Positions 2,964 to 47,772 of a DNA stretch of 64,000 bases are shown piece by piece. Within the stretch, counting starts at the first letter, position 1. Each line of letters starts with the position of its first letter. The notes under the pieces were generated by a model. It was given only the letters and a program-made list of their open reading frames with translations. It was not told the origin of the DNA and ran no database searches. The stretch comes from a virus. Position numbers and translations under genes: made by a program. Location: positions 117,219 to 181,218 of IMG/VR virus record IMGVR_UViG_3300037420_001874, one strand, 5' to 3'.

Positions 2964-5900
2964 ATGGCACGCAGTCCCTTCCAGGGCACCTACAGCCCGA
3001 ACCTCCGGCCCACGGTCGTCCACGCCCCCGATACGCTCGTCTACATCAACGGCGAACCGGACGTGGTCGGATGCCCGCAGTGTCGGCGCAAGTTCGATCT
3101 CTCGAAGTACATCACGTCGGTGCAGGTGGACCTCTCGGTCGAGAGCGTGCCGGGCTCGGCCAACATCACCCTCTCGGTCCCGCGCCACGTCATCGACGAC
3201 TTCATGTTCGACGGGGTGCCGCTCATCTCGCCCATGATGGAGGTCGAGATTTTCTCGAAGGGCTACTACCTCGTCGAGGGCCTGCCCCAGTATTACCCTA
3301 CGTTCTGGGGCCTGGTCACCGAGGTCAACGACAACTACTCGGGCGGCGAGCACACGGTCACGATCGCGTGCGCGGACATTCTGAAGTGGTGGGACATTTG
3401 CCGGATGAACATCAACCCGGCGTTCACGGCTCCGAAGGGCCAGCTCGGGACGAACATCTTCGGCAACGTCTTCTACGGGACCAACCCCTACGACGTGATC
3501 TACACGCTCGCCAACATGGCCTTCGGCGACGTGATCTTGGGCACCGGCTCGCTCATCTCGCTCTACAAGGAGGGGCAGCAGAAGAAGACGTTCGACACGG
3601 CCCTCGGCGATATCATGGCCTACTGGCAGCAGAGGTTCGGTAAGATCCGATCGAACCTCCTGCTCTACGGCATGAACGGGGTGGCCATCCGGGGCGCGGA
3701 CCTCGACGTGGCCTACCAGAAGGGTAAAGCGACCAAGAGCAAGCCCTTTGCCTCGGCGGCCGTCCGAAACGCCAACGGCGGCGACGCCAACGCCCAGGCC
3801 ATCTTCGATCCGACAAGCCCCAACGTCCACGCCTTCCGGACGCAGTTCATGAATGCCGGGCAGGTGAACTTCTGGCAGAGCGAGTACCAGAGCAAGCTCG
3901 AAATCGCCAACGGCGCCAAGGAGGCGATCGGCTTCGAGTTTTACATGGACGTGACGGGCGATATCGTCTTCAAGCCGCCCTTCTTCAACCTCGACGTGCT
4001 GTCAAACAAGCCCGTCTCGTGGATTCAGGACATCGATATCATCGACTGGGACTTCGGCGATTCCGAGGCCGAGGTCGTGACGCAGCTCTCGATCCAGGGC
4101 AACTTCGGCGGCAACACCGACTACGGCCTCGACGAAGCGGCGACGCCGTACACGTCCGTCACCGACTACCACCTGCTTCGCAAGTTCGGCTGGCGCTCGC
4201 AGACCTACAACAGCGAGTTCATGGGCGACCCGCTCCTCATGTTCTACCACGGGCTCGATATCATCGACCGGATGAACGCCAAGGAGTTCCGGGCGACTGT
4301 GACGATCCCGATGCGCCCGGAGCTTCGCCTGGGATTCCCGATCTACATCGCTCCGAAGGATCAGGTCTGGTACATCCAAGGGATCTCGCACAGCATCCAG
4401 TTCGGAGGCCGTGCGACCACGACCCTGACGCTCACGGCCCGGCGAACGAAGTTCAAGGCTCCCAAGGGGATCAGCACGCTCAAGATGACCGGCGAGACCA
4501 AGCCGCCGGCTGCCCCCACGGGCAAGAAGTCCTCGCCCACCAAGCAGGAGCAGAAGACGGCGGCTCCGACCAAGGACGCTCCTCCGAAGGAGACGAAGAA
4601 GGGTCCGCCCACGACCCAGCAGCTCGCCCGCAAGACCTTCTCGCTCGATATCGGAGGGGCGGCGCAGATGCCCGCGGTCGACCTCGATCCCGAGAAGCCC
4701 GAGACCATGACGCCCTACGAGCCGCTCATCCTCCGGCACCCGAAGACGGGCCGGATCTGCGGCTATCCGAACGTGGTCATGGTCTATACCCGACCTTTCA
4801 AGGACCTCACCCTCGACCAGTTCAAGCGGGTAACGGGCAAGGGGGCGGGCAAGGGCCAGGTGAAGCAGGCGAGCGCCAAGAGCCAGCAGGCCATCAACCA
4901 GATCCGCGACAAGGGCCTCGCTGCGGCGGCCGATGCCTTCAACGACACGACCGTGGACAAGCTCGTCGAGAAGTACAACGCCAACCGCTGGCGCTACGGG
5001 CTCAACTCGGCCGGTGTCTTCGTCTACGCGCACGATACTGAAAAGGCCCTGCTCTCGTTTGCGCTTCTGCCCGCGGCGAACATCACCGTTACCCAGCAAG
5101 GGCAGGCGACCAAGACGAGCCCCTTCTCGCACTCGGCCATGATCCGGCCCGTGTCCGACGAGCGTGGGTTCGAGGTCATCGGCCACTTCCGCTACGGGCG
5201 AGGAGTCTCTCTGCGAGATGGTCGGCTCGTGCTCACCGACGGCAAGAACGAGGCGGCCAGCGTGGGCCTTCAGCTCGCGCTCTCGGGCGACCTCTTCGCC
5301 TCGCTGACGGCCCAGAGTCAGGGGCTTACGGCCGTCGTGTCGGCCTATTCGAGCCCCGCCGAGACGCTCGCTCGCCTCGGCGACGACGACTTGCAAACGG
5401 CGGCGGTCATCCAGCCGAACACGATGGATGCCTCGACGGCAAAGTTTGTCAACACGGGCGACTCGTTCGTGGACACGGCCCCTCTCGGGTCCCCTGAGCA
5501 GAAGGGCCTCCCCCCGAGCGTCGAGGCTTCGCAGCTCTCCCGGGCGCTCACCCTCGCCGAGATGGGGGTGAAGGGCGAGTCGATCCCGGCCGAGGACAAC
5601 TGCGTGTGCATGTCCGGTCGAGCGGACCTCGCCTTCATCAACGTGGGCTATTCGGTCAAGACCCTGAACCCGGCAAGTCCCGAGGTCGAGGTCTTCAACC
5701 AGGGGGGTGCGGCCAACTTGCAAGACGGCACCGTCGAGGGGGTGACCTCCTTTGGCGACCGAGAGCTTGCCAAGGAGCTGGGGGGCGGGGCCGCAAAGCC
5801 CATCGCGGCCGAGCTGAAATACGACGCCGTCCGGACCAAGGTGGAAGAGTATCTCTCGACCCTCTACGGAGCGCTCGATGACGTACACCACCAGTACGAG

Positions 5901-6455
5901 CAGGCCATCCGAGGCAAGCTCCTCGACCCGGGCGGTGACGCTCCGTCCGGCCTCGGTCTCGGCGACCCCTCGAACCCCGAGAATGCGGACTTCGAGCCTC
6001 CTTTCTCGGCCCCCAATCGGGCGAACCTCGGCGACCCCATCGCTACGGCCCTTCAGGGAAGCTCCGCGCGAAGCGACATCAAGAAGAGCTGGCAGAAGTT
6101 CGGCGAAAGCCTCGACAAGAAGAGCAAGCTCTTCGCCAAGCAGCAGAAGGTGCTCAGCCTTCAGAACCAGCTCGCCGATCTCAAGAAGAAGAAGGCGGAC
6201 GCGACCGGGGGCGGAGTCTTCCAGAACACGTTCAAGGACCAGGGCCCCCCGCCTGATACTTCAGCTATCGACAAGGAGATCGCGGCTGTCACAGCCGAGC
6301 TGACGAAGCTCCAGATGGAAATCCAGGCAGGTATCGCGTTATGCCCTCTCGCGTTCCGATGGGGTACAGCCCCCGCAAGCCGTTCGTCAACGAGGACAAC
6401 CCCTACGCCCACACCCGCGTGGGGGTCATCACCTACGTGGACGAGCTGCACATGA
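2964..6455 (+). CDS. Baseplate hub protein (gp27/gpD/VgrG-N-like); likely ends at TTA 6339-6341
   Basis: Hub-like motifs: ITSVQVDLSV..VPGSANITL, FWGLVTEV, GFEFYMDVTGDIVFKPP, ATVTIPMRPELRLGFP, YIQGISHSIQFGG..TTTLTL. It lies before the spike gene. Under code 11 it overlaps the next gene by 115 nt. Confidence 0.7.
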   Translation: MARSPFQGTYSPNLRPTVVHAPDTLVYINGEPDVVGCPQCRRKFDLSKYITSVQVDLSVESVPGSANITLSVPRHVIDDFMFDGVPLISPMMEVEIFSKGYYLVEGLPQYYPTFWGLVTEVNDNYSGGEHTVTIACADILKWWDICRMNINPAFTAPKGQLGTNIFGNVFYGTNPYDVIYTLANMAFGDVILGTGSLISLYKEGQQKKTFDTALGDIMAYWQQRFGKIRSNLLLYGMNGVAIRGADLDVAYQKGKATKSKPFASAAVRNANGGDANAQAIFDPTSPNVHAFRTQFMNAGQVNFWQSEYQSKLEIANGAKEAIGFEFYMDVTGDIVFKPPFFNLDVLSNKPVSWIQDIDIIDWDFGDSEAEVVTQLSIQGNFGGNTDYGLDEAATPYTSVTDYHLLRKFGWRSQTYNSEFMGDPLLMFYHGLDIIDRMNAKEFRATVTIPMRPELRLGFPIYIAPKDQVWYIQGISHSIQFGGRATTTLTLTARRTKFKAPKGISTLKMTGETKPPAAPTGKKSSPTKQEQKTAAPTKDAPPKETKKGPPTTQQLARKTFSLDIGGAAQMPAVDLDPEKPETMTPYEPLILRHPKTGRICGYPNVVMVYTRPFKDLTLDQFKRVTGKGAGKGQVKQASAKSQQAINQIRDKGLAAAADAFNDTTVDKLVEKYNANRWRYGLNSAGVFVYAHDTEKALLSFALLPAANITVTQQGQATKTSPFSHSAMIRPVSDERGFEVIGHFRYGRGVSLRDGRLVLTDGKNEAASVGLQLALSGDLFASLTAQSQGLTAVVSAYSSPAETLARLGDDDLQTAAVIQPNTMDASTAKFVNTGDSFVDTAPLGSPEQKGLPPSVEASQLSRALTLAEMGVKGESIPAEDNCVCMSGRADLAFINVGYSVKTLNPASPEVEVFNQGGAANLQDGTVEGVTSFGDRELAKELGGGAAKPIAAELKYDAVRTKVEEYLSTLYGALDDVHHQYEQAIRGKLLDPGGDAPSGLGLGDPSNPENADFEPPFSAPNRANLGDPIATALQGSSARSDIKKSWQKFGESLDKKSKLFAKQQKVLSLQNQLADLKKKKADATGGGVFQNTFKDQGPPPDTSAIDKEIAAVTAELTKLQMEIQAGIALCPLAFRWGTAPASRSSTRTTPTPTPAWGSSPTWTSCT

Positions 6456-8509
6456 GGTGCAACGTCCGCGTCCTCACCGGCGGCGAGGAACGCTTCGAGG
6501 TCGACCTCACGCAGGCGATGGCGGGGCCGAGGAGCTTTCTCGGAGGCATCCCCGAGGTCAACTCGCTCGTCATCGTTGCCTACCGCCGCAAGCACAAGAA
6601 CCTGTTTGACGCGGTCATCCTCGGCTACATCCCCGTCGGTAACATCCTCGGCCTCCGGTTCGACCCCTTCTCCGGGGTCAACCCGAACGCTCTCGACCCC
6701 GAGGACAAGGTCGATGCGCAGGCCATCTTCGGCAAGCATGTTCGGTACAAGCGCATCCGAGGCAAGCCCGGCGATGTGATGGGCATGAGCGCCTCGGGGG
6801 CCGAGTTTCTGCTCTCGAAGGACGTACGGCTCTTCAACCGAGCCGGCGACCTCATCGAGCTTCGCGACTCTGACCGGACGCTCATCACCCAGGCGGTTCA
6901 CCGGGTCCACTCCGACGCGGGCACCTACGCCTTCTCCGGGCCCATCCGGCGCGGGGCGATGGATCTCCCGCTCGATATCTTCCAGACCGACAAGGACGGC
7001 AACCTTACGCGCGTCCTGAAGACGGCGGCGGAGCGGTACTTCGGTCGGGACGATCTCTTTCTGACAGGCCCCTCGGGCTCTTCTTTCTCGAATGCAGCCG
7101 GCCACGTCCTCGACCGGGTGAACGACACCGAAGAGTTCCCTCCGGTCACTTACTCGAACGGCAGGCGGGCCTACTACGCTGGCACTGACCCGGCCGCTAA
7201 CTTCGAGTCCTCGACCGGCTCGGGCGAGACCTTCACCGAGCACCGGCTCGAAATCCGGCACACCACCCCTGTTCAGCAGGAGGTGCGCGAGGAGATCGAC
7301 GGCTTCTCGGCCGATCGCCCGGTGCCCTTCATCGAGCAAGTCTTCGGGACGATTGTTGGCAACGACCCGTATTCGTCCGAAGGCCAGCGGGCGTACGGGC
7401 GGGTGCTCATCCCTCGGATCTTCGACGACTTCGAGCAGACCGCGCCCCCCACTTCGCCTGGGCTCTCGATGGATGAGGCCAGCCGTGCCCCTGGGGGGCC
7501 GGACGAGGCTCTTACGCGAGCGGGCGCCTACCTCTTCCGTATCCGTCCTCCGAAGAGCCCGTCGACCAGCGTGTTCGGGGTCGCGGTCTCCAAGCAGGGC
7601 AAGCTCCATGTCAACGTGCCGGGGTCGTCCGAGGAGCACGCGGGCAACTCCCGGAACATCTCGGCCGAGGTCAACATGGAAGGGGCGCTCAAGATGCGCC
7701 TCGGCGCCACGACCCCCGAGCAGATTTCGCTTCACATGACGCTCGACGGAGCGCTCTATGTGAAGATCGGCCAAGACGCGCTCGGCCGAAGCATCATCAC
7801 GGACTTTTCCGGGTCGGTCAAGAACGTCTACAAGGGTAACGACGCCGACGGGGTGGCCCGATCGGTCGAGGTCCAGGGCAACGCCGAGAAGTCGATCTCG
7901 GGTAGCTACACGAAGACCGTCCAGGGCTCGCACACCTCGCGGGTCTCGGGCTCGCACTCGACGCAAGCCACCGACGTGGCCGTGAGCGCCCTCAACGGCT
8001 ACTCGGTCACGGCCCAGAGCCAGAACGTCACCGTGGCTGGCAAGAGCCAGTTCAACTTCGCCCTGCTCGTGCAAGAGACCATTGCCGCGGGGGGTAAGAT
8101 CATGACCGTGCTTGCGGGCGGGGTGACCAGCACGGTCGCTGCGGGAGCGTTTACCCAGACCGTGGCGGCAGGGGCGACCACGTTCGCCAACCCGGGCGGC
8201 GCCTTCTCGGTCGCGGTTGGGGCGGGGGCTCTTAGCCTGACCACGGCCTCGGGGGCTGCTGCCATCACGGCCGGGGCAGGTGCGGTGTCCGTCTCGGCGG
8301 GTTTGGCGCTCACCCTGACTGCGGGCCTGGCCATGAACCTGTCGTCGGGGGTTGCGATCTCTCTCGTTGCCCCGCAGGTCCTTGTCGGCGGCCCCGCGGC
8401 GGTCTTCGGCGTGGCTCGTGGGGCCCCCATGCACCCGCCGGGCTCGCCGAGCCTCGATTGGATCACCGGCTCTCCTTTGCAGGGTTCGGCCGTTTTCAGG
8501 TCATGGTGA
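6341..8509 (+). CDS. Central spike protein (gp5/gpV/VgrG-C-like)
   Basis: N-terminal OB-fold-like segment (RVGVITYVDELHMRCNVRV...GGIPEVNSLVIV) and C-terminal short beta-strand repeats (SVEVQGNAEKSISGSYTKTVQGS; SVAVGAGALSLTTASGAAAITAGAGAVSVSAG). Confidence 0.7.
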   Translation: MPSRVPMGYSPRKPFVNEDNPYAHTRVGVITYVDELHMRCNVRVLTGGEERFEVDLTQAMAGPRSFLGGIPEVNSLVIVAYRRKHKNLFDAVILGYIPVGNILGLRFDPFSGVNPNALDPEDKVDAQAIFGKHVRYKRIRGKPGDVMGMSASGAEFLLSKDVRLFNRAGDLIELRDSDRTLITQAVHRVHSDAGTYAFSGPIRRGAMDLPLDIFQTDKDGNLTRVLKTAAERYFGRDDLFLTGPSGSSFSNAAGHVLDRVNDTEEFPPVTYSNGRRAYYAGTDPAANFESSTGSGETFTEHRLEIRHTTPVQQEVREEIDGFSADRPVPFIEQVFGTIVGNDPYSSEGQRAYGRVLIPRIFDDFEQTAPPTSPGLSMDEASRAPGGPDEALTRAGAYLFRIRPPKSPSTSVFGVAVSKQGKLHVNVPGSSEEHAGNSRNISAEVNMEGALKMRLGATTPEQISLHMTLDGALYVKIGQDALGRSIITDFSGSVKNVYKGNDADGVARSVEVQGNAEKSISGSYTKTVQGSHTSRVSGSHSTQATDVAVSALNGYSVTAQSQNVTVAGKSQFNFALLVQETIAAGGKIMTVLAGGVTSTVAAGAFTQTVAAGATTFANPGGAFSVAVGAGALSLTTASGAAAITAGAGAVSVSAGLALTLTAGLAMNLSSGVAISLVAPQVLVGGPAAVFGVARGAPMHPPGSPSLDWITGSPLQGSAVFRSW

Positions 8510-8510
8510 G

Positions 8511-9083
8511 ATGCCCATCTCCCCGGTCACTTCCGCGCCCATTCTGACGGGCACCCTTCTCTCGAATGCCATCGTGGGCGTCGCTACCCCCAGGCTCGCA
8601 AGCGGGGTGGCCAATGGGCTCAGCCTTTGGCTCCCCACGGTTACGGTCAACTCGACCGCAGCCGGTACGCTTGGGGTGGGGGCCGGCCTCGTCCCGACGA
8701 TCCCCGTGCCTACCCCCGTGCTCTACGCGGCCTTGGTAGCCTCGTTTGCAAGCCGGGGCCTTCTCGGGGTCATGTCCCCCTTGGTCATCAACGGCTTGGC
8801 CGCGGGGCTTTCGCTGGTCTTCCTTCAGGGCCAGGTGGTGACGACGCAGCCGAATGTGGGGGTGGGGGCCGGGGTGGCGACCTTTGCGGCCCCTCCTGCC
8901 GGTCCTCTGATGAGCCAGGGCTTCGTTGCCGCGGGGCTCACGGGCATCGGACAGGTGCAGCTCGCCTCGGCGATTGGCGATGCCCTGGGGACCGTTTTTT
9001 CTGCTTTGGTCCTGCCTCTAGCGGTAGCCGGCTCGCCCAGCATCGTACCGTCCTCGGGCCCCGGGACCGGCAAGATTCTATGA
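8511..9083 (+). CDS. Small Gly/Ala-rich structural protein, possible spike-tip protein
   Basis: ATG at 8511, 2 nt after the spike stop (the track start at 8352 is an overextension). 190 aa, two similar halves, ends GPGTGKIL. Confidence 0.45.
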   Translation: MPISPVTSAPILTGTLLSNAIVGVATPRLASGVANGLSLWLPTVTVNSTAAGTLGVGAGLVPTIPVPTPVLYAALVASFASRGLLGVMSPLVINGLAAGLSLVFLQGQVVTTQPNVGVGAGVATFAAPPAGPLMSQGFVAAGLTGIGQVQLASAIGDALGTVFSALVLPLAVAGSPSIVPSSGPGTGKIL

Positions 9084-9096
9084 AAATGAGGCAGAC

Positions 9097-12000
9097 ATGG
9101 CTTTCTCCGTTACCGGCTACGTCCTCGAAAAGCCCCGGGTCGGGACATCCAACTCCCCCTTCACGTCCTCGCCGGACAACGTCGTGTCCGACCCGTCGGC
9201 CTTCGATGCGGCTTTCCCCTCTTCGGAGGAGAACCCCCGGACCGAGTACCTGACGCTCGTGCTCTCGGATGGGGACTTGGCGAACGCGGAGTTCGGGTGG
9301 ACCAAGAATGAGGTCGTCAACCGGTTCGACTGGGACGGCCAGGGGCAGCGCTTCCGCACCCTGCCCGGTGCCCCTCCGATCACGATCGGCACCCTCAGCC
9401 CGACGGCCAACACCACGCGCCTGAAGGTCAGCCAGATCCCCGCCGACCCGGCAAAGCTCTCGCCCAGCGTGGCCCCTTTCCGGATCTCGGTGGGGACGAC
9501 CGGCTCGGGCGTGTCGTTCGTGGTCGATGTTGTGGCCGACGACGCGGCCCTCGTGGCCCCCGGCCTTCTGATGGGCCATGTCCGCTTGAGCCTCACCACG
9601 GGTAACTTGGCTTGGGCTTCGACGGACCTCTCTTCGTACAACGGGCAAGCGGTCCGGTTCCAGCCGCAGAGCTTCTTCTCGTTCAAGGAGTCAACGGGCC
9701 ACATCGGCGATGTGGGGGGCACGATCCTGCTCTCCCCGATCCCGGGCGCGGGGCAAAAGCCCCTTGTCCGGATCGGCTTTGGGCTTTGGCTCACGCCGGT
9801 GCAGGTCTTCTTCGATTTCGCGTTCTCCTCGAACCCGGCTCCGGGCACGTTCGAGTGGTCGCTCGCCACGGGCAAGATCAAGTTCAACTCGACCGACGTG
9901 GCCGCGTTCGCCGGCCTGCCGGTCTACTACGACGGGGTCCTCTTCGAGAAGAACCTCCGGCTCCCGTCGCAGAGCCTCAGCACAGTCGCTTCCCCCTCGT
10001 CGATCTTCGGGGTCCCTTCGGCAGGCTCAGACCTGGTCTTCCGGGCCACTTCGACGCTGCTCACGGGCGGGGGCACCATCATCGCCCCCAACCAGCTCCA
10101 GGATAGCTTCTCGTCGCTCACGTCCGTGGCCAAGGGGGACGTGGTCACGATCACCTCGGCGGGGCCCTACTTCGGGACTCGGCGGAAGGTGACGGCGGTG
10201 GCGGGGCAGGTGATCACCGTCCAGCCCCCTTTCCCGATCCGGGGGTCGGTGAGCTACGCGGTCGAGCGGCTCCACATCCAGTTCCCCGAGACCGTCCGCG
10301 TCGACAGCTTCGCTTCGGTTCCCGCCCCTCCTGCCCCGGGTGCGGGACAGGTCGAGGTCGACAGCCTCGGGGCCGTGCAGCTCTCGGCCCAAGATGTGGC
10401 CAACTATGGCTCGCTCGCGCTCAGCGTGGTCTTCGGGGACTTGCCGATCGAGCGTGGGGTCTCGCTCCGGCTCTTCCGTACCCCGGTCGATCCGAGCGGG
10501 ACCGAAGACGCCTACAAGGACGTGTCGGCGTTTTACTCGGTCGAGGGGGCGACTTTGGCGAGCCCCATCCAGCCGGTGCCTCTGCTCTTTCTGCCTTCGG
10601 TTCCGGTTGACGACCCGGCCTTCCCCACGACCATCACCGTCGAGCAGGGGACCGGAAGCTATACGGGCCAGCTCGCGCGGCTCGACACGCCCTCCCCCTC
10701 GGCAGGTCTCGGCTACTTCCTCGACCCCGACAAGCGAGAGTTTCACTTCGCCCAGCGCAAGAACGGGGTGATCGTCCAGCTCCCCTCTCCCGTGGGGGCA
10801 ACGGCTCTTCCTGACCCGCTCATCGACCCGGACAACCTCTCGCTTACCCTCGACCAGGGAGCGGGTCCGGTGGCCCTCACGCTCGGGACCGACGCCCTTC
10901 TCGATGCCCAGTCGGGGCTTCTGTCCTTCGTGGCGACCCAAGGCACGGTTCTCTTCAGCGGGCAAGCGACCCTGGCCTCGTCGAGTCTGACCGACCCGTC
11001 GCAGAACTTCTCCTCGGTGACGCAGGGCGACCTCGTGGTGATCGCCTCGGGGTCCGCAAAGGGGGTCTACACGGTGCTCTACGGGAGCGGCGCTTCTCTC
11101 TACGTGCAGCCCGCATTCCTCGCGTCAGGGACAGGGGTTTCGTACGAGGTCCGAAGGGGCAAAGAGACCTTGGCAGACCGATTCTTCCAAGAGGTCTCGC
11201 TGGCTGACCCGGCCACCAAGGTCGAGCGCATCCGGGCCCTTGGGGTGACGCAGAACTCCCCTCGTCTCTCCGTCGCGACGGCCGACGCCGCAAAGATCCG
11301 GTTTCGCTTTGGCGGGTCGACCTTCTCTTCGTCCGTCGTGACCGTGGCCAACGACGGGTCATTCACGAATCCGGCCTCGCTCAGCCCTCAGGTCGTCGAG
11401 GTGAGCCTCGCTACGGGGCACCTCAATTTCAGCTCCTCGGATGTGGCCTCTTCGCAGACGGTCTACGCGGTTCTTCTTCTCACCGAGCAGAAGGACTATC
11501 GCCTCGATGCCGTCCGGGGTCTCGTCCAGGTGACCGAGCGGCTTCTCTCGAACGACGAGCTTCTCCTGTCGTACATTCCGCTCGACAGCTCTGGGAACGC
11601 CCTCCCCCCTGTCGTGGAGCGGGGTACGTTCCTCGTTCGCAAGGAAGTCGGCTCGCATCCTTCCGAGGGCAACACCGTCACGTTCAACCCCCTCGGTCGC
11701 ACGGTAGCGAGCAACCCTCCACCGCAGGTCTATCGGGGCGGTCGGCCGCAGAGCAGCGCTCAGGTGTTGATCGACACGGCCACCTCGACCGTGACCTTCC
11801 AGCCGGACACGCAAGCGACCGATGCTCTGCCGCACGGGGCGGTAGTGGAGCCCGACGAGCGTATCTACATCGACTACTACGTCTACGAGGCGATCGGGGG
11901 CGAGAACACGACCAGCGTGCTTCAGCCTCCGATGCGGGTCACGCAGCTCACGCTCACCGACGGATCGTCATCGTTCACCCTCCCCGGCAACCGGATCTCG

Positions 12001-35713: not shown

Positions 35714-38323
35714 ATGACCACGAAGGACTATGGGGCGGCCGTCAGCGGCTACCTCGACCCGGACAACCGCTCGTTCGAGAACCTCGTTAGCCAGGCTGGC
35801 AAGCCCGTCCTCGATAAGGAGCTGAATCTTGCGGCAGACCTGCAAGCGCTGGCGGCGCAGGCCGTCCTCAAGCAGGCGACGCCTTCGGGGTGGGTGTCGA
35901 ACGAGTTTCTGAGCAAGGCGGCCCCTGTCCTCTCGCTCACGGCTCCTTCGTCCACGCCCAACTACCTCTCGCTGGTGGGGCTCCGGGCGCACGTCAACGG
36001 GTGGCTGCTCGATGTCGTCAACACTGGCGCGGTGGGGGTGAACACGGTGGACCTCGGCGCCGGCCCCTCGGGCAACGGCGCAAAGCGGACCGACCTGGTC
36101 ATCCTGGAGGTCTGGCGCCGGCTCCTCTCGGCCGCCCCCGATACCGACGGCAAGAGCCAGACGGGCCGGATCTGGAAGAACGGCAACGTCAAGATCCCCT
36201 CGGCGTCCGATGCGGCTCTGAACCCCGCCGACGACCTGAAGGACGGTGTCGTCAACTCCGAGACGACCAAGCGGGTGCAGATTCAGTACCGCCTGCGGGT
36301 GATCCAGGACGTGGACATCTTCACCTACCCGGCCGGCCTCGAAGACCCGGCCGTGGTGGCCAACACGGTCCCGGCTTCGGCTGGCGCACCCGACGGCACG
36401 TCCACGATCTACACCTACGCCAACCAGAGCGCCGCGGGGGACCCGGGCCTCTGGAGGGCCGGCAACGGCGTTCCGTCAAACGGCATGGGGACCGTGGACG
36501 GGTATATGTATGCGATCCCGCTTTGCGCCGTCTTTCGTCGCAACACGACCGCGTACGACAAAAACCTGAACCAGAACGGCGGCGTGGCCTCGCCGGGCCC
36601 CTCGGACCGACCTGACGGGCTCTTTCACGACATCATCGACAGCGAGGACGTGGCCGACCTTCGGCGCGGCTCGTGGGTGGGTGGCTGGCCGACGGCCGAG
36701 GTGCTCGAAAAGAACTTCTTCGCCCTGCTCGACAACGAGCTTCGTACCGAGTGGACGACGACGGCGACGGGGGGCGGGGTCTCGGGCCACACGGTCCTTC
36801 TTGCCGACGAAATCGGGGTGAGCACGGCCAACGGCGGAGACGGATCGAGCAATGGCGACACCCCCGGGGCGGCGCTTATCGGCGAGTTCGATTGCGTCCG
36901 GCGCCGTTTTTCGGACCGGCCGAACTACGAGGTCGTGACGGTCTGCTACACCCCTGGTGACCCGTCCGTCTCCGATGCGAGCTGGCAGACCGGAACGACG
37001 GTCACGATCACGCCGACCTCGATCCAAATCTTCCCCTACCAGGCGACGCCGTTCAACTTTGCGGCCTACGCTCCGAGCGGGACGAAGATCATCGACGTAC
37101 TCGGGGCCCGCTTCCGGGGGGCCAACACCGTGAGCTTCGGTAACCCCGATAACGGCACCGACTACGTCATCGCCCGGAAGATCACCGGGCTCGGGGCGAG
37201 CCCCATGACGGACGTGGTCCTCACGGTCGAAAACCCGCTCGACTACTTCCTCACGAACGAGAAGCTCTACATCGACTTGCTCGTGGCCTATCCGGCTGGC
37301 AAGGGCCTGTCCCGCACGCCTGTCGAGGACTTCGGGTCGGCAAGCTTCGTCGTCAACAACACGTCGCTTCTGCCCACTACGGCCCCGCACTCCTTCTCGG
37401 CCATGAGCACGCAGGATCTCGACTACCCGCACCGGGAGGTGGTGCTGGAGTACGAGACGAGCTTGCTCACGCACACGTTCCAGGCGGGCATCGACGACAG
37501 CACGTTGCGCCTTCCGGAGAGGTGCTCTTCAGCGTCGGTCACGGTGGCTGGTTCGCCCGCTGCCATCTCGATCGCGGCCGACGGACGGACGGCGACGATC
37601 ACCCCGGGCCCGCTCCAGTTCGACGTGGTCCAGATCGACTACACGGCGCTCCGGCCTGTCCCGCAGACGGGGGTTCAGTTCACCGTCTACTACAAGACTC
37701 GGGCTCCTCAAGCCGTCCACGCGGCCCTGCTCGGCACGAGCCAGGACTTCACCCCCCGCTACATCTCCCCCCACCTCTACGTCCTGACCGCGGGCTCAGG
37801 TTCGATCGGCGAGGGCTACCCCTTCCCGAGCGCCTACGCCCAGACCGGCGGCGTTCAGACGAAGCCGAGCAGCTCGGCGTGGGTGGGTGAGCATCAGCTC
37901 TCGGGGACCACGGGCATCTACATCGCCAACTTCAACGCCGAGACGGGCTTTCTGAAGCTCCCGGCGCATGTGCCCTACGCCCCCGATCCGGACGCTGTCA
38001 CGTTCGAGCGCCAGCTCGGTGACATCGACGCCGAAGGCCGGGCGTACTTCAACAGCGTACCTCTCGGCACCTACTTGCCGAATGCCTACGGCAGCCCCCT
38101 CGCGAGCGCTCGGGTCCACAAGGTCATCCTTCCGACGGTGATGGAGCTGAAGGCGGATTCGACGCTCGGTCCGAAGGGCTCTCTCTGGCTCGTTCTCCTC
38201 GTTCGATGGGCCGAGTTCGACGCGGATAACGGGATTCACTTCGACACGCTCGCCTCGCTCGCGAACTCGACCACTGCTGCGGTCTTCCGGCTGAACGGCC
38301 ACTTGCTGAACAGGAGCGCCTGA
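35714..38323 (+). CDS. Tail fibre/baseplate protein, DUF4815-like N-terminus, paralogue 1
   Basis: VSGYLDPDNRSF..LVSQAGKPVLDKELN; shares several blocks with 41489..45628. Confidence 0.6.
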   Translation: MTTKDYGAAVSGYLDPDNRSFENLVSQAGKPVLDKELNLAADLQALAAQAVLKQATPSGWVSNEFLSKAAPVLSLTAPSSTPNYLSLVGLRAHVNGWLLDVVNTGAVGVNTVDLGAGPSGNGAKRTDLVILEVWRRLLSAAPDTDGKSQTGRIWKNGNVKIPSASDAALNPADDLKDGVVNSETTKRVQIQYRLRVIQDVDIFTYPAGLEDPAVVANTVPASAGAPDGTSTIYTYANQSAAGDPGLWRAGNGVPSNGMGTVDGYMYAIPLCAVFRRNTTAYDKNLNQNGGVASPGPSDRPDGLFHDIIDSEDVADLRRGSWVGGWPTAEVLEKNFFALLDNELRTEWTTTATGGGVSGHTVLLADEIGVSTANGGDGSSNGDTPGAALIGEFDCVRRRFSDRPNYEVVTVCYTPGDPSVSDASWQTGTTVTITPTSIQIFPYQATPFNFAAYAPSGTKIIDVLGARFRGANTVSFGNPDNGTDYVIARKITGLGASPMTDVVLTVENPLDYFLTNEKLYIDLLVAYPAGKGLSRTPVEDFGSASFVVNNTSLLPTTAPHSFSAMSTQDLDYPHREVVLEYETSLLTHTFQAGIDDSTLRLPERCSSASVTVAGSPAAISIAADGRTATITPGPLQFDVVQIDYTALRPVPQTGVQFTVYYKTRAPQAVHAALLGTSQDFTPRYISPHLYVLTAGSGSIGEGYPFPSAYAQTGGVQTKPSSSAWVGEHQLSGTTGIYIANFNAETGFLKLPAHVPYAPDPDAVTFERQLGDIDAEGRAYFNSVPLGTYLPNAYGSPLASARVHKVILPTVMELKADSTLGPKGSLWLVLLVRWAEFDADNGIHFDTLASLANSTTAAVFRLNGHLLNRSA

Positions 38324-40800
38324 TGCCCTCGATCAAAAACCCCAACGCAGTCGTCAAGGCGGGCGCTGGAAAGCTTTCGGCCAACCAGGTCCCGGCCTCG
38401 GCTCTCTCCTTCGCCCCGGACGGGTCGGCCGATCTGGCCTTGCACATCTCCGACCCGAGCAACGCCCATGTGGCCTCGGCGATCCGACTGCCAGACACGG
38501 TAGACAACCCGACCGAAAACCTCCTCTCCAAGGCGGGTGGTCCGGTCGACGGCGAGACCCTGCTCGACTTCATCGCTCGTGCCAAGGACGCCTACCCCCA
38601 GCCCCCGAGCTACCTCGGCTATTATGACGCGAGCTTGCCGAACTCGGGCGTCCCGTACTGGGACGTGCTCGATTACGCGACCGACTTCGAGAACGGGTTC
38701 GCGCAGACGGGCGGCTACACGAGCGGCTCGAACGTCATTCCGACGAAGTGCCTGGTGCAGCCGACCGGCTTCATCATTCAGCCTTCGGGCACGCTCTACC
38801 CGGCAGACCGGGGCCTGATCACGATCTACCTCCACAACACGGGGGACTTCTTCGATGGCAACTCGGTGCTCTGGGTGGCTCTCTGGCTCGGCCCCACCTC
38901 CGAGATGCCTGCGGACCTGGTGTCGGGTTCGATCGCGTCGGCCAACTTCGATCGATCGCTTCTGAAAGACGGGCAACCTGACTACGTGTCGAGCGATACG
39001 GTGCTCGACTATATCAGCCTGTCGTATCGTCGTCCGAGGCTGCACGCCTACCCCGATTCGCCGTTCTACGAGGACTTCGGTGGGAGCGACTTCTACGGCC
39101 AGCAGGTCGCCTCGTACATCGTCAGCCCGGGTCGTCTTTTCACGACGTACGGAGGCTATCTCATCGTTCACTGGCGAGAGTCTCCCGACCTCACCATGGC
39201 GATGATCGACGGGACGAACCTGCTGACCTATCTCACCCAGGATCGCTGCTACTCGCCGGTGCCGACCCCGAGCGACTTCTTGTCTGGGGCCATCACCAAC
39301 GTCAACCGCCGAAGGATCTACCTCGACGGCTATGGCACGGTGGCCCCTTCGGTCACCTCCGCCACGATCAGCTCGGGCGCGGGCACTACGTTCTATCTCT
39401 CGGGCGTCAGCCACGTCACGTCCGCGTCTTCGTTCACGCTCTCGTTTACGATCTCCGAACTCTTCGGGGACGCGATCGGGCACGGTAAGGGCTACCTGAC
39501 CGGGACGCTGACGAACACCAACGTCCCTGCGGGGTTCCAGTCGCTCCTGCCTCCGGTGCAGATCGACTACACGGCTTTCAATGGCGCGGTCACCAACGTC
39601 CCGTATTACCAGCTCAAGCGCCAGAGCGATGGTACGCTGTTTTCGCTCACCAACGCTCCGCAGTCGACCGACGTGGCGACCTACACGGCCGCCGGCTCTA
39701 CGGTGGGTTCCGCCGTCTACACGCCCCCTTACACGGGTTCGGCGCCGATCACGATCCGTGTGAACAGCCCCTTTGCTGCGCAGGTCGTGGGGACTACCAC
39801 CTCTCAGCTCTCGTACAACAACTACCCCCAGTCCGGATCGCTTACCAAGTCCACGGCCACGTCCGAACCCTTCCTGGATGAGAAGTACCGGTACAACTCG
39901 CTCGTTACGCTCACCAGCAACAACAAACGGATTGTTCCGGTGGGCGGGGACATCTACTTGTCGAGTACAGCGATTGTAGCTGACACGTCGGGTTCGTTGT
40001 TTGGTTCGACCGAACCGAAGCGTGCCCTTCAGGTCGTCGGCGGGCAGGTGGTCTACCCGCACATCGACTACAGCTCGGGCTACCTGCCCGGGGGGCCGAA
40101 CTACGCCACCGTTTTCAGCAGCGATGTGGCTGCGGCTGGGCCCAACGCCATCGGCCGCGCGTACGTCCGAGCCTTCGACACGGGCCAGCCGCGCACCTCG
40201 GGCCGCTTCCGCATCCGAGGCGTCTCGATGGCCAACATCGCCTACGGAAGCGGTACGGGCGTCTACACCGCCGACCAGCCGGGCAAGATGCGAGTCCAGA
40301 TCCGGGTGCCGGGTACGACGGGTTGGCTGAACCTCGGCCGAAACGCTGTTGCCACGGGCGGGTGCCTCACGGGCACCCAGACCTTCTACTACACCTCGGG
40401 CTACGCGACCATTGCCGGTGGTGGCACGACGTTCGCGGATTCGGCGCAAGACTTCTTTGCAAAGGAGAAGCACGACAGCGACGTGCTTTTCATCCCGGTG
40501 GGCCCGAACCGGGGGCTCTACTCGCTCTCCCTGAACACGACCAACTTCGGTCAGCTCACGTCCATCATCGGCACGCTCTCGGATGCCACGAACGTGTACT
40601 ACGAGGTCTACCGAAGCGTTGACGAGATCGCCACGATCTTCAGCTACACGACCGACGTGACCAACAGCGGCCCGACGGGTAACAACGGCTCGGGCGAGTA
40701 TCCGATCTTCATGGAGATCGATATCTTCAAGTTCCTCGGCGACACCTCGACTTCGGCGCTCGGTGTGCTCGGGGTCGAGTGGCTCCCCTTATGGAGATGA
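38323..40800 (+). CDS. Tail fibre-like structural protein; likely ends at TTA 40789-40791
   Basis: TGATG coupling with the previous gene; HISDPSNAHVASAI (a fibre-type H..D...AH.ASAI motif); beta-rich. Confidence 0.55.
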   Translation: MPSIKNPNAVVKAGAGKLSANQVPASALSFAPDGSADLALHISDPSNAHVASAIRLPDTVDNPTENLLSKAGGPVDGETLLDFIARAKDAYPQPPSYLGYYDASLPNSGVPYWDVLDYATDFENGFAQTGGYTSGSNVIPTKCLVQPTGFIIQPSGTLYPADRGLITIYLHNTGDFFDGNSVLWVALWLGPTSEMPADLVSGSIASANFDRSLLKDGQPDYVSSDTVLDYISLSYRRPRLHAYPDSPFYEDFGGSDFYGQQVASYIVSPGRLFTTYGGYLIVHWRESPDLTMAMIDGTNLLTYLTQDRCYSPVPTPSDFLSGAITNVNRRRIYLDGYGTVAPSVTSATISSGAGTTFYLSGVSHVTSASSFTLSFTISELFGDAIGHGKGYLTGTLTNTNVPAGFQSLLPPVQIDYTAFNGAVTNVPYYQLKRQSDGTLFSLTNAPQSTDVATYTAAGSTVGSAVYTPPYTGSAPITIRVNSPFAAQVVGTTTSQLSYNNYPQSGSLTKSTATSEPFLDEKYRYNSLVTLTSNNKRIVPVGGDIYLSSTAIVADTSGSLFGSTEPKRALQVVGGQVVYPHIDYSSGYLPGGPNYATVFSSDVAAAGPNAIGRAYVRAFDTGQPRTSGRFRIRGVSMANIAYGSGTGVYTADQPGKMRVQIRVPGTTGWLNLGRNAVATGGCLTGTQTFYYTSGYATIAGGGTTFADSAQDFFAKEKHDSDVLFIPVGPNRGLYSLSLNTTNFGQLTSIIGTLSDATNVYYEVYRSVDEIATIFSYTTDVTNSGPTGNNGSGEYPIFMEIDIFKFLGDTSTSALGVLGVEWLPLWR

Positions 40801-46038: not shown

Positions 46039-47772
46039 ATGAACCTGGACGACATTTTCAACGCTTTCGTCAACCCCCAGACGATCCTCATCTGCCTGGT
46101 CGTGTACGTGATGACGTTCGCGATCCGAACGGCCGTCGAGGCTCTCTGGAAGAGCGCTTCCCACAACCTGCTCTGGAACGAGCTGTTTCTGCCGCTCGGT
46201 CCGATCGCCAACGGCGCCCTTCTCGGCCTCGCGGCCAAGACCTTCGTGTGGCCCGAGGTGGCGGGTGGCTCGCTCGCCGGCCGGATGATGTACGGCGCGG
46301 TCTGCGGCCTCTTCTCCGCGTTCGTCTACGGCCGTGCTCGTTCGTTCGCCGAGGCCAAGGCTTCGAGCGTGCTCGGGCAGAAGTTACCGTCCCCTCTCGC
46401 AAAGACCGTTCGAGGAGCTTTCACCATGGTTGCCGATCCGAAGCGCGTCGCCTCCAAGTTCACCCAGGCCGAGCGTCTGGCGTCTGATTTCTTCGAGCTG
46501 AGGTACGCGCGGCTCCTCGTCGCGATGACGTTGCAGGAGGCCAAGAAGATCCTTGGCCTCGACCCCCTGAAGACGCCTACCGAGGACGAGATCAGAAAGG
46601 CGTACCGGGCGCTGGCTTTTGCCAACCATCCCGATCGCGGCGGTACCCACGAGAAGATCGTGGAGATCAACACTGCGAAGGACGTGCTCGAAGGCAAGCA
46701 GAAGCCTACGTGGACGCCGTCGCCGTCGCCTCGCCCCTCGAATCCCTGGCCCTACCCGGGTGAACGCGGAGCGCCGCCTCCGCCGAGGGACCCGCCCAAG
46801 CCGTATACGAAGGTGCCGGGTGTCACGTTCGCCGAGGCGAAGAGCGCTGGCAACGTCCCGACCTCGGCCGAGTGGAAGGTCTGCTCGACCGAGACCTGGC
46901 CGAAGGGTGACGCGGGCGAGCGCCGGATCATCTTCTGGGTGGTCTACGGGCAGACCAACAGCCAGCACGTCTTTCTCCTGGTGACGCGCAAGGGCTCCTA
47001 CTACGACCACGAAAAGCGCCTCGAACACGAGAACGAATACGGCATGGCCGTCGCCACGGCCTCGAAGTCGCAGGACCTCATCAAGATCGCTCCGAAGCTC
47101 ATCAAGAGTCTGATGGGCTCAGAGCTGCTCGCCGGCCGCACCGTGAGGGCCCCGGTCAAGTACAAGCTCTGGCCGGAGAGTCAGTCGCTCACCGAGGAGA
47201 CCATCAGCAAGATCGGCTACTCGGGGGCGATGGCGCTGAAGGACGCGCTCAAGGGGGCGGGGGTCCTGACGGGCGACGAGAAGGGCATGGCCGACCGCAA
47301 GTCTCGGGTCGAGGTCTACTGCCGCTTCAATCAGGACAAGTACAAGGCCATGCAGGCCAAGAAGAAGAGCGGCGAGATCCGCATGGTCGAGTCCTGGCAG
47401 GTCGTCGACATGTTCGTGGTCTTCAACGGCAAGGAATACCAGCTCGCCGACGACACGATCGAGAACCTTCAGAAGAACAACTTCATCCTGGCTGTCTTCG
47501 GCTACAAGATGGAGCAGCGCAAGGTTCTGAACAACAACACGGGCAAGATGTTCGGCCGGGGCTACTCGCCGGGCTACCTCATGGGCCTGCTCGCCGACGC
47601 GCTCACGAGCGAGCCCTCGTCGCTCATCATCCAGCTCACGGCCGAGGCCGAGAAGCTGCAAGATGCCGGGGCCAAGACGGCGTGCATGAGGGCCTTCCGG
47701 GCGAGCACCACGCTCGAAGACACGGCCCTGATGTTCGGCCTCGATCTCTACGACGCCTTCCGCGCCCTCTGA
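46039..47772 (+). CDS. Code-11 ORF joining a holin-like membrane protein (46039..46386, ending at TTA) and a J-domain protein (46426..47772); probably two genes
   Basis: First 115 aa contain ~3 hydrophobic helices. TTA at 46384, GAGGAG at 46412-46417 and in-frame ATG at 46426. J-domain LQEAKKILGL...EIRKAYRALAFANHPDRGG..EKIVEINTAKDVL with an intact HPD motif. Confidence 0.75.
   Translation: MNLDDIFNAFVNPQTILICLVVYVMTFAIRTAVEALWKSASHNLLWNELFLPLGPIANGALLGLAAKTFVWPEVAGGSLAGRMMYGAVCGLFSAFVYGRARSFAEAKASSVLGQKLPSPLAKTVRGAFTMVADPKRVASKFTQAERLASDFFELRYARLLVAMTLQEAKKILGLDPLKTPTEDEIRKAYRALAFANHPDRGGTHEKIVEINTAKDVLEGKQKPTWTPSPSPRPSNPWPYPGERGAPPPPRDPPKPYTKVPGVTFAEAKSAGNVPTSAEWKVCSTETWPKGDAGERRIIFWVVYGQTNSQHVFLLVTRKGSYYDHEKRLEHENEYGMAVATASKSQDLIKIAPKLIKSLMGSELLAGRTVRAPVKYKLWPESQSLTEETISKIGYSGAMALKDALKGAGVLTGDEKGMADRKSRVEVYCRFNQDKYKAMQAKKKSGEIRMVESWQVVDMFVVFNGKEYQLADDTIENLQKNNFILAVFGYKMEQRKVLNNNTGKMFGRGYSPGYLMGLLADALTSEPSSLIIQLTAEAEKLQDAGAKTACMRAFRASTTLEDTALMFGLDLYDAFRAL

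Follow-up and report, generated by a model that had tools for sequence, protein, structure and literature searches.

A TTA triplet as the probable terminator of a baseplate-hub-like gene in a 435-kb phage genome

Introduction

A 64,000-nucleotide (nt) stretch of the virus record IMGVR_UViG_3300037420_001874 (positions 117,219 to 181,218; hereafter the window) carries a baseplate-hub-like gene followed by a central-spike-like gene, and their junction raises the question of where the first gene ends. Under translation table 11, the hub open reading frame (ORF) 2964..6455 (1163 amino acids (aa), P0001) and the spike ORF 6341..8509 (722 aa, P0002) overlap by 115 nt, with the TGA at 6453–6455 as the first canonical stop in the hub frame. 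An earlier note on this DNA had proposed that the hub gene ends instead at a TTA, a leucine codon in table 11, that shares its last base with the spike ATG. Here we show that genes end at TTA genome-wide and in a frame-specific manner, in at least two phage lineages and with the phage tRNA-Leu(UAA) absent. Judged from these sequence comparisons, UUA probably terminates translation in this phage and is not read as leucine (probability roughly 0.85), and the hub protein would end ...MEIQAGIA. The hub/spike junction is one well-supported site of a genome-wide phenomenon.

Results

The hub frame contains a single TTA, which overlaps the spike start

The source record comprises 435,218 bp at 64.8% GC, with direct terminal repeats and an estimated completeness of 100%. 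The genome of the window phage is referred to as G000; the window is its minus strand at positions 115,929–179,928. A DNA similarity search of deposited phages gave no match to the window junction, nor to the related contig L037; at the protein level there was one distant hit only.

The names of the two proteins are plausible, weakly supported predictions. For the hub, the label is a lead from an unnamed PHROG match and from language-model neighbours among GpP/gp44/gpD-like baseplate families. The spike weakly matched PHROG 430 and 694 ('baseplate hub subunit and tail lysozyme'; E = 5e-4 and 3e-3). Its structure model has a mean predicted local distance difference test score (pLDDT) of 55, and the best fold matches, all at E of 0.01–0.1 only, were the AlgoCIS, P2 gpV, PVC, T4 gp5 and R2 pyocin spikes and OB folds; VgrG was among the weak fold matches too. 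A Pfam search of both proteins returned no match, and a PDB sequence search no meaningful one.

On the plus strand, positions 6336–6346 read gcg TTA TG ccc, with tta at 6339–6341 and atg at 6341–6343. A codon scan of the ORFs confirmed the claim that this TTA, codon 1126, is the only one in the hub frame and overlaps the spike ATG by 1 nt. The likeness that the earlier note drew to TGATG junctions elsewhere in the window also holds, their ATGs lying at 38323, 45628 and 63710. Likewise, the hub/spike overlap was correctly described as the only large one: among 35 gene calls in the window under table 11, it is the sole overlap exceeding 20 nt.

If TTA is read as leucine, the hub protein gains a tail of 38 aa including that leucine (LCPLAFRWGTAPASRSS...SCT). 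This tail had been described as off-frame in composition, and our measures agree. Past the TTA, GC content at third codon positions (GC3) is 0.61 in the hub frame versus 0.95 in the spike frame. A codon log-odds model, for which the middle sections of long ORFs served as training data, scores the two frames -1.01 and +0.63, so that the tail has the properties of noncoding sequence in the hub frame.

Relatives end the hub gene where the window has TTA

We then compared the hub with its homologues. In the comparison with 103 hub homologues, the alignments nearest the C-terminus reach as far as hub residue 1119–1121 (median to 90th percentile), and among the 69 informative homologues the projected C-terminus falls at hub residue 1116–1135 in 59. 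No extension resembling LCPLAFRWG, which the earlier note had singled out as the feature to look for, is conserved among the 103. The sole homologue that aligns with the hub tail, P0135, belongs to a second phage whose hub also ends ...TTA TG..., and there too the tail is the off-frame N-terminus of the spike. In the complete relative G001 (451,925 bp, 52% GC), the hub continues for 9 residues past the end of the alignment, which equals the 9 residues before the TTA of the window, as compared with 47 before the TGA. The chance that a single TTA among 1163 codons would land within one codon of the stop position of the relatives is about 3/1163.

The same position is marked by the distance to the spike start. 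In seven relatives, whose spikes are 50–59% identical to that of the window, the canonical hub stop lies at -16, -16, -8, -6, -2, +1 and +1 nt from the spike start, whereas in the window the TTA lies at -2 nt and the first canonical stop at +112 nt. The junction of L002, tcg TAA TG cct, has the geometry of the window with one base different. TAATG is found in L002 and L038, an ATGA-type junction in L034 and L003, and gaps of at most 16 nt elsewhere. The arrangement in which terminator and start overlap by 1 nt (-1 nt) is thus conserved in relatives, which would place this junction among translationally coupled ones.

The overlap codes for the spike

The spike side of the junction was evaluated in the same manner. 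Spike homologues in four related virus contigs align from residue 7–8, and the overall range of alignments is residue 1–8 to 721; more than 400 database homologues measure 713–746 aa at 99–100% coverage. In a 33-sequence alignment, G8, P11, F15, G28, V33 and D34 are at least 90% conserved, and the first predicted beta-strand of the N-terminal domain spans residues 25–34 in the structure model. The conservation of these N-terminal residues indicates that the 115-nt overlap codes for the spike.

These data bear on a reading in which the junction is an annotation issue: the hub would end at TGA 6455, the spike would start at ATG 6452 (ATGA), and TTA would be a rare leucine codon. The ATG at 6452–6454, overlooked in the earlier note, does lie in the spike frame and overlaps the hub TGA, and the sole distant match in the phage collection begins at spike residue 37. 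However, residues 7–37 of the spike align in all close homologues and hold the highly conserved residues and the first strand, and relatives start the spike beside the hub stop. A start at ATG 6452 is ruled out on these grounds, and we regard the annotation reading as having a negligible chance of being correct.

The spike of the window is stored in the database as 716 aa, with its start at ATG 6359, rather than 722; upstream of this alternative ATG no Shine-Dalgarno-like element was found. At its other end (window 8507–8513), the spike gene finishes with TGA, which is followed by gATG of the next gene (MPISPV...).

In-frame TTA behaves as a stop throughout the genome

For a genome-wide view, 402 ORFs of G000 (about 106,000 codons) were chosen by GC3 periodicity. 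They contain 57 in-frame TTAs versus 343 off-frame ones, and the presence of the latter inside ORFs indicates that the avoidance of TTA is frame-specific. Moreover, the last tenth of the ORF holds 37% of the in-frame TTAs, as against 7–21% for 17 other codons. Homology-supported codons number 42,820, and only one of them is a TTA; it lies near a C-terminus, at a distance of six residues from the end of its alignment.

The codon model was used to score the frame downstream of each TTA preceded by strong coding (n = 20). The mean score was -0.19 and 60% of values were below zero, whereas thirteen sense-codon controls, including the rare CTA, ATA, AGA, TCA and ACA, gave +0.37 to +0.66 with 0–12.5% below zero (Fisher p = 1.4e-8 versus TTA). 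Past canonical stops, the means were -0.50 (TGA), -0.34 (TAG) and -0.14 (TAA). This collapse of the coding score, as for canonical stops, suggests that TTA behaves as a stop and not as a sense codon.

When TTA was counted as a stop, a simple caller produced 536 genes versus 492 otherwise, ending in 340 TGA, 77 TAG, 65 TTA and 54 TAA, and overlaps longer than 30 nt fell from 10 to 4. TTA-ended genes occur on both strands and all along the genome, five of them within the window. The contexts fell into three groups. In the first, TTA forms part of TTATG, as at the hub; in the second, a Shine-Dalgarno-like element and then an ATG, frequently in frame with the TTA, come after it; and in the third, TTA complements the TAA of a convergent gene. 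In this third group, 12 convergent gene pairs of G000 finish on one shared TTA/TAA triplet and leave no space between the genes. They account for 12 of the 16 TAA-ended genes in convergent orientation; the hub junction is not among them. Such shared ends work only if TTA terminates, and a strand-specific sequencing error cannot explain them.

An artefact, with TAA misread as TTA, or a non-translational signal, such as site-specific RNA editing or cleavage, is discounted almost entirely for further reasons. Soil-metagenome contigs from two runs (depth 33 and 9), one of which may be the source sample, show 0 differences to window positions 4000–9000, so the hub/spike sequence is not a one-off assembly error, and four further contigs from other runs, described below, show the same pattern. 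The shared triplets could not be corrected on both strands at once. Finally, the reading frame alone sets terminal TTAs apart from off-frame ones: no motif or structure signal is shared by the flanks of terminal TTAs, no flanking position exceeds 0.29 bit of information, and 306 off-frame TTAs lie within genes. A +1 slip onto TAA or TAG was also rejected, being available at just 31 of the 65 TTA sites and not at the hub junction. With no flanking motif and with a slip unavailable at about half of the sites, the signal appears to be read in frame, that is, by the ribosome.

The flanks also bear on whether TTA could be a conditional terminator, at which a regulated, bldA-like host tRNA-Leu(UAA) allows UUA to be read through in one host state, with longer or fused proteins, or a timing of expression, as the outcome. 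Precedents are bldA in Streptomyces and the UUA bypassing proposed for phage Hau3 (PMC10732093), and several TTAs are followed by the next gene in frame. However, most tails are off-frame or antisense and carry no coding signal, so that read-through products would be useless; at the hub junction, read-through would yield just the 38-aa off-frame tail, and no flanking motif or structure signal is common to the sites. We consider a conditional terminator highly unlikely.

A complete relative reads TTA as leucine

G001 offers a direct comparison of gene ends. In this relative TTA is an ordinary codon, and 51% of its 230 aligned TTA codons face Leu; G000 writes the Leu positions facing a G001 TTA as CTC, CTG or CTT and never as TTA. 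An informative C-terminus in G001 was available for 102 genes of G000, of which 86 have no TTA and 16 have a TTA near the end. The 86 genes differ from the G001 end by a median of 0 (interquartile range (IQR) -1 to +1), with 7 extending by more than 15 aa. Under table 11, the 16 TTA genes typically continue past the G001 end (median over-run 33 aa), and in 12 of them the excess is above 15 aa (p = 5e-8); with TTA as the end, the median difference is 0 (IQR -0.25 to 5).

Five TTAs, that of the hub included, fall exactly at the G001 stop. In one alignment that apparently spans two TTAs, the G001 stop faces the first TTA, and the remainder is an off-frame alignment of the overlapping next gene. 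Two further genes of the window were compared by the residues that follow the end of the alignment. For 60314..60640, the G001 homologue has 5, as compared with 3 to the TTA and 10 to the canonical stop; for 60827..62404, it again has 5, as compared with 11 and 22.

The earlier note had called the hub/spike junction the strongest single-site evidence that TTA is a terminator. The terminator itself is borne out by several independent lines, whereas the ranking is debatable, as other sites match the stop of the relative exactly and have far longer table-11 extensions.

A second subclade also ends genes at TTA

A second subclade was represented by four contigs from four other runs, which correspond to three distinct phages: L036, L037, and L038 with L039–L041. 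Their GC content is 55–58%, and their spikes are 53–54% identical to that of the window and 76–85% among themselves. In the partly overlapping loci there are 12 in-frame TTA occurrences, or about 11 distinct sites in about 26,000 non-redundant called codons. All lie within the last 28 codons of table-11 ORFs, none being interior, and most form a TTATG that starts the next gene. TTA-sense relatives of similar GC content have 11–21 interior TTAs per 4,500–6,000 codons; since these relatives keep interior TTA, the purge is not simply due to GC pressure.

Within the subclade, TTA and TAA replace each other at homologous junctions. L036 and L037 have TTATG at the hub/spike junction, where L038/L039 have TAATG; the L036 spike read from TTATG is also 722 aa. 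At the junction of the spike and the next gene, flanked by a conserved C-terminus (...VRSI) and a conserved N-terminus (MPITPA...), TAATG is found in L036 and TTATG in L037 and L038. Read from these sequences, the swaps between close relatives look like the behaviour of synonymous stop codons.

A search with the L037 spike against IMG/VR and GTDB genomes found no relative. The spike tree groups the window phage, the second subclade and two TTA-sense lineages in one supported clade; the branching order within it is compatible with one origin of the trait as well as with two. The 4,427 codons of L034 (60% GC) include no TTA and no ATA, and its genes end in canonical stops throughout; it looks like a stage at which the codon had vanished.

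The subclade also bears on the possibility that TTA is still leucine and that the hub simply carries a real 38-aa extension overlapping the spike, a tolerated stop loss from TAA to TTA. A single A-to-T change from the TAATG of L002 or L038 would suffice, and the stop-poor off-frames of GC-rich DNA permit long extensions. Nevertheless, about 65 genes would each have had to undergo this loss, with TTA as the outcome every time and no other codon one step away from a stop, and with extensions of up to several hundred codons that run antisense through convergent genes. The hub tail has neither coding signature nor conservation, and the second subclade repeats the pattern, so that we rate stop loss as extremely improbable.

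tRNAs, release factors and a possible route of termination

The tRNA set of G000 numbers 44 and contains Leu(CAA), Leu(GAG) and Leu(CAG) but neither Leu(UAA) nor Leu(UAG); no remnant of either was found in the genome. G001 encodes both tRNA-Leu(UAA) and tRNA-Leu(UAG).

Separately, a class-II tRNA of 93 nt with anticodon CUA, resembling an amber suppressor, lies outside the window at G000 331929–332021 on the complement strand. It has a long variable arm, A73 and an encoded CCA; the main tRNA array lies well away from it, and G001 has no equivalent. The recoding of TAG that this tRNA hints at was not supported by the downstream scores (-0.34 after TAG and -0.50 after TGA).

At the hub/spike junction, the ribosome would stop on UUA 6339–6341, and the one-base UUAUG overlap would let it re-initiate on the spike AUG, in the same termination–reinitiation coupling as the UAAUG, UGAUG or AUGA of relatives. 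The peptide would be released by a class-I release factor with widened specificity, most likely host RF2, in a cell that offers no competing tRNA-Leu(UAA). Such a state probably arose by codon capture, with TTA purged from the frames and the phage tRNA-Leu(UAA) lost, after which TTA would have become interchangeable with TAA at gene ends. There is an even chance that soil host bacteria themselves read UUA as a fourth stop (with RF2 or RF1 altered and tRNA-Leu(UAA) lost), or that the phages impose this code on a standard host via an unrecognised factor.

Alternatively, UUA might be an unassigned ('hungry') codon, at which the ribosome stalls and then undergoes drop-off, rescue or slow near-cognate release; UUA would still be an effective terminator, with no new release-factor specificity. 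The state could even be made by the phage, for example by destroying host tRNA-Leu(UAA) as a host shut-off. Unassigned codons exist in the high-GC Micrococcus luteus, G000 lacks tRNA-Leu(UAA), and no release factor was found in the phage. In addition, drop-off and Pth have been discussed for UUA in Streptomyces (PMC10732093). On the other hand, about 12% of genes, structural ones included, depend on TTA, and backup stops are not enriched past it: a canonical stop follows after a median of 73 codons, versus 37–106 after ordinary stops. TTA and TAA also swap freely at homologous junctions of close relatives, and the phage has no Pth, SmpB or ArfB-type domain. Stalling, moreover, would tag or trap the product. 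Given the interchange of TTA with TAA, the lack of selection for backup stops and the dependence of structural genes, an unassigned codon is rated lower and appears unlikely.

Discussion

Several points weigh against genuine termination at UUA and have to be set beside the evidence above. Standard RF1 and RF2 select strongly against codons that carry a pyrimidine at position 2. Neither G000 nor G001 was found to encode an RF-1, PCRF, eRF1/eRF1_2, Pth, SmpB or GTP_EFTU domain, so release at UUA must come from the host or from a phage protein that escapes recognition. Nor does the reading explain the class-II tRNA(CUA) of G000. The absence of interior TTA is by itself weak evidence at 65% GC, as ATA, AGA and CTA are also very rare. 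One paralogous gene pair aligns 5–6 residues beyond the TTA, with relatives about 10 residues longer, and in two genes the TTA sits 20 and 65 residues past the position of the G001 stop. What the sequences show is where genes end; for the release of the peptide, we infer a class-I factor of widened specificity by analogy with UUA-stop organelles (PMC12574857), and this dependence on analogy also counts against the reading.

Sense-to-stop changes are recorded only for mitochondria and one plastid group (PMC12574857). UUA is a stop in labyrinthulean/Thraustochytrium mitochondria (NCBI table 23) and, as UUA/UCA, in peDinoflagellate plastids, and UUA/UUG are stops in the mitochondria of Pseudoscourfieldia (Pycnococcus) and Marsupiomonadales; in these organelles the change goes together with an RF2 Ser204 substitution or an altered RF1a, which is the proposed route of release (PMC12574857). 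As in the organelles, UUA in our phage is absent from gene interiors and present at the stops of homologues, and tRNA-Leu(UAA) is missing, here from the phage set. Unlike them, with their tiny gene sets and dedicated mutated RF2 or RF1a, the phage has 435 kb and about 536 genes, relies on bacterial host translation and encodes no release factor; in contrast to some organelle codes, UUG and UCA remain sense codons.

Among phages, Lak megaphages and crAss-like phages recode TAG or TGA to an amino acid (PMC8346664, PMC7886860). They share with the window phage a large genome that is mis-predicted under table 11 and a tRNA set fitting the changed code; the direction here is the opposite, from sense to stop, and TAG, TGA and TAA are still stops. 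Streptomyces uses rare UUA codons for control through bldA, and UUA-triggered bypassing has been proposed for phage Hau3 (PMC10732093). In both, as here, UUA is a special, nearly unused codon of GC-rich genomes, the poor decoding of which is exploited by phages. However, UUA there is interior and is decoded or bypassed, whereas here TTA replaces stops at conserved gene ends, also at 55–58% GC, and is followed by tails with no coding signal, unlike an interior regulatory TTA of the bldA type. Stop/start overlaps of -1 and -4 nt (TAATG, TGATG, ATGA) with termination–reinitiation coupling are known (PMC10666635). The hub/spike junction resembles the -1 nt overlaps in that a single base closes the terminator and opens the next ATG, and differs in the terminator triplet, TTA.

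Codons lacking a tRNA can also end an ORF by other routes. AGA and AGG at the ends of two human mitochondrial genes are read as a -1 frameshift onto UAG, and M. luteus, as noted, leaves codons unassigned. The phage resembles both in that the ORF ends at a codon with no tRNA, here none in the phage set; a shift onto a canonical stop, however, is unavailable here and at about half of the TTA sites. To our knowledge, the codon reassignments of bacteria and phages all turn a stop or sense codon into an amino acid. No phage or bacterium with a sense-to-stop change turned up in a literature search, though its coverage was incomplete and it is not proof of absence.

If UUA does terminate translation, a bacterial-type translation system can acquire a fourth stop codon. 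As a sense-to-stop change in a free-living cellular lineage, a host code of this kind would be without precedent, and phages of at least two lineages, at 55–65% GC, would have adapted their gene ends to it; a code imposed by the phage would be equally new. A search for such a host would look for a soil bacterium whose TTA codons are confined to gene ends and whose release factor is altered. The code could also mark host range or hinder the exchange of genes. The relatives would also provide a natural test of the codon-capture model, as they include phages with TTA as sense codon together with its tRNA, with TTA vanished and with TTA as stop.

For annotation, TTA as a stop would restore the tight hub–spike translational coupling found in all relatives. 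Standard gene callers would then misplace many protein ends and neighbouring starts in these megaphages, making the hub 38 aa too long and displacing the spike start, and would produce miscalled fusions of up to several hundred codons elsewhere in the genome.

Features of the window and additional observations

The coordinates of the features in the window are collected in Table 1.

Table 1. Features at the hub/spike junction and other TTA-ended genes (window coordinates)
Feature	Position	Strand	Description
Baseplate-hub-like gene	2964..6341	+	1125 codons plus proposed TTA terminator; protein predicted to end ...MEIQAGIA; homologues of 52–62% identity end a few residues from codon 1126
TTA codon 1126, proposed terminator	6339..6341	+	Shares its final A with the spike ATG; the TAA of L002 has this -2 offset too
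Central-spike-like gene	6341..8509	+	722 aa; start is the ATG of TTATG
Table-11 hub tail	6342..6455	+	37 codons plus TGA; noncoding in the hub frame, N-terminal coding region of the spike
ATGA	6452..6455	+	In-frame Met38 codon within the spike gene that overlaps the TGA of the hub frame; incidental and distinct from the junction
Weak Shine-Dalgarno-like AGGCAGG	6325..6331	+	10–16 nt 5' of the spike ATG; candidate read from the sequence
TTA-ended gene	38323..40791	+	822 codons; TTA at 40789, again TTATG
TTA-ended gene	46039..46386	+	115 codons; TTA at 46384, then in-frame GAGGAG and ATG
TTA-ended gene	60314..60640	+	108 codons; TTA at 60638
TTA-ended gene	60827..62404	+	525 codons; TTA at 62402

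The last two TTA-ended genes of the window have the letters TTAGCAGC in common past the last sense codon, at 60638–60645 and 62402–62409.

Just outside the window, at reverse-strand position 255111 of G000 (window position -179), a TTATG joins a tape-measure-like gene of 1284 codons and the gene that runs into the window at 3–809. The corresponding junction is also TTATG in L036, L037 and L038, and a canonical stop aligns there in G001.

In L037, the database calls are displaced at both spike junctions (9887–10001 and 12058–12124): the spike is stored as 696 aa, and the next gene falls 22 codons short of the MPITPA... start. In L036 (8116–8124), a gene ends with a tandem TTA GCC TTA just 5' of the next ribosome-binding region and ATG.

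A second codon is also scarce in these phages. ATA (Ile) occurs 0–6 times per 5,000–7,000 codons in the TTA-terminating L036–L041, versus 16–36 times per 4,500–6,000 codons in TTA-sense relatives. This makes it 5–10 times rarer than in L001–L005, L033 and L035, which are TTA-sense and of similar GC content; AGA is also low. ATA in G000 still behaves as a sense codon, and its rarity may reflect a second codon on its way out or the codon usage of the host.

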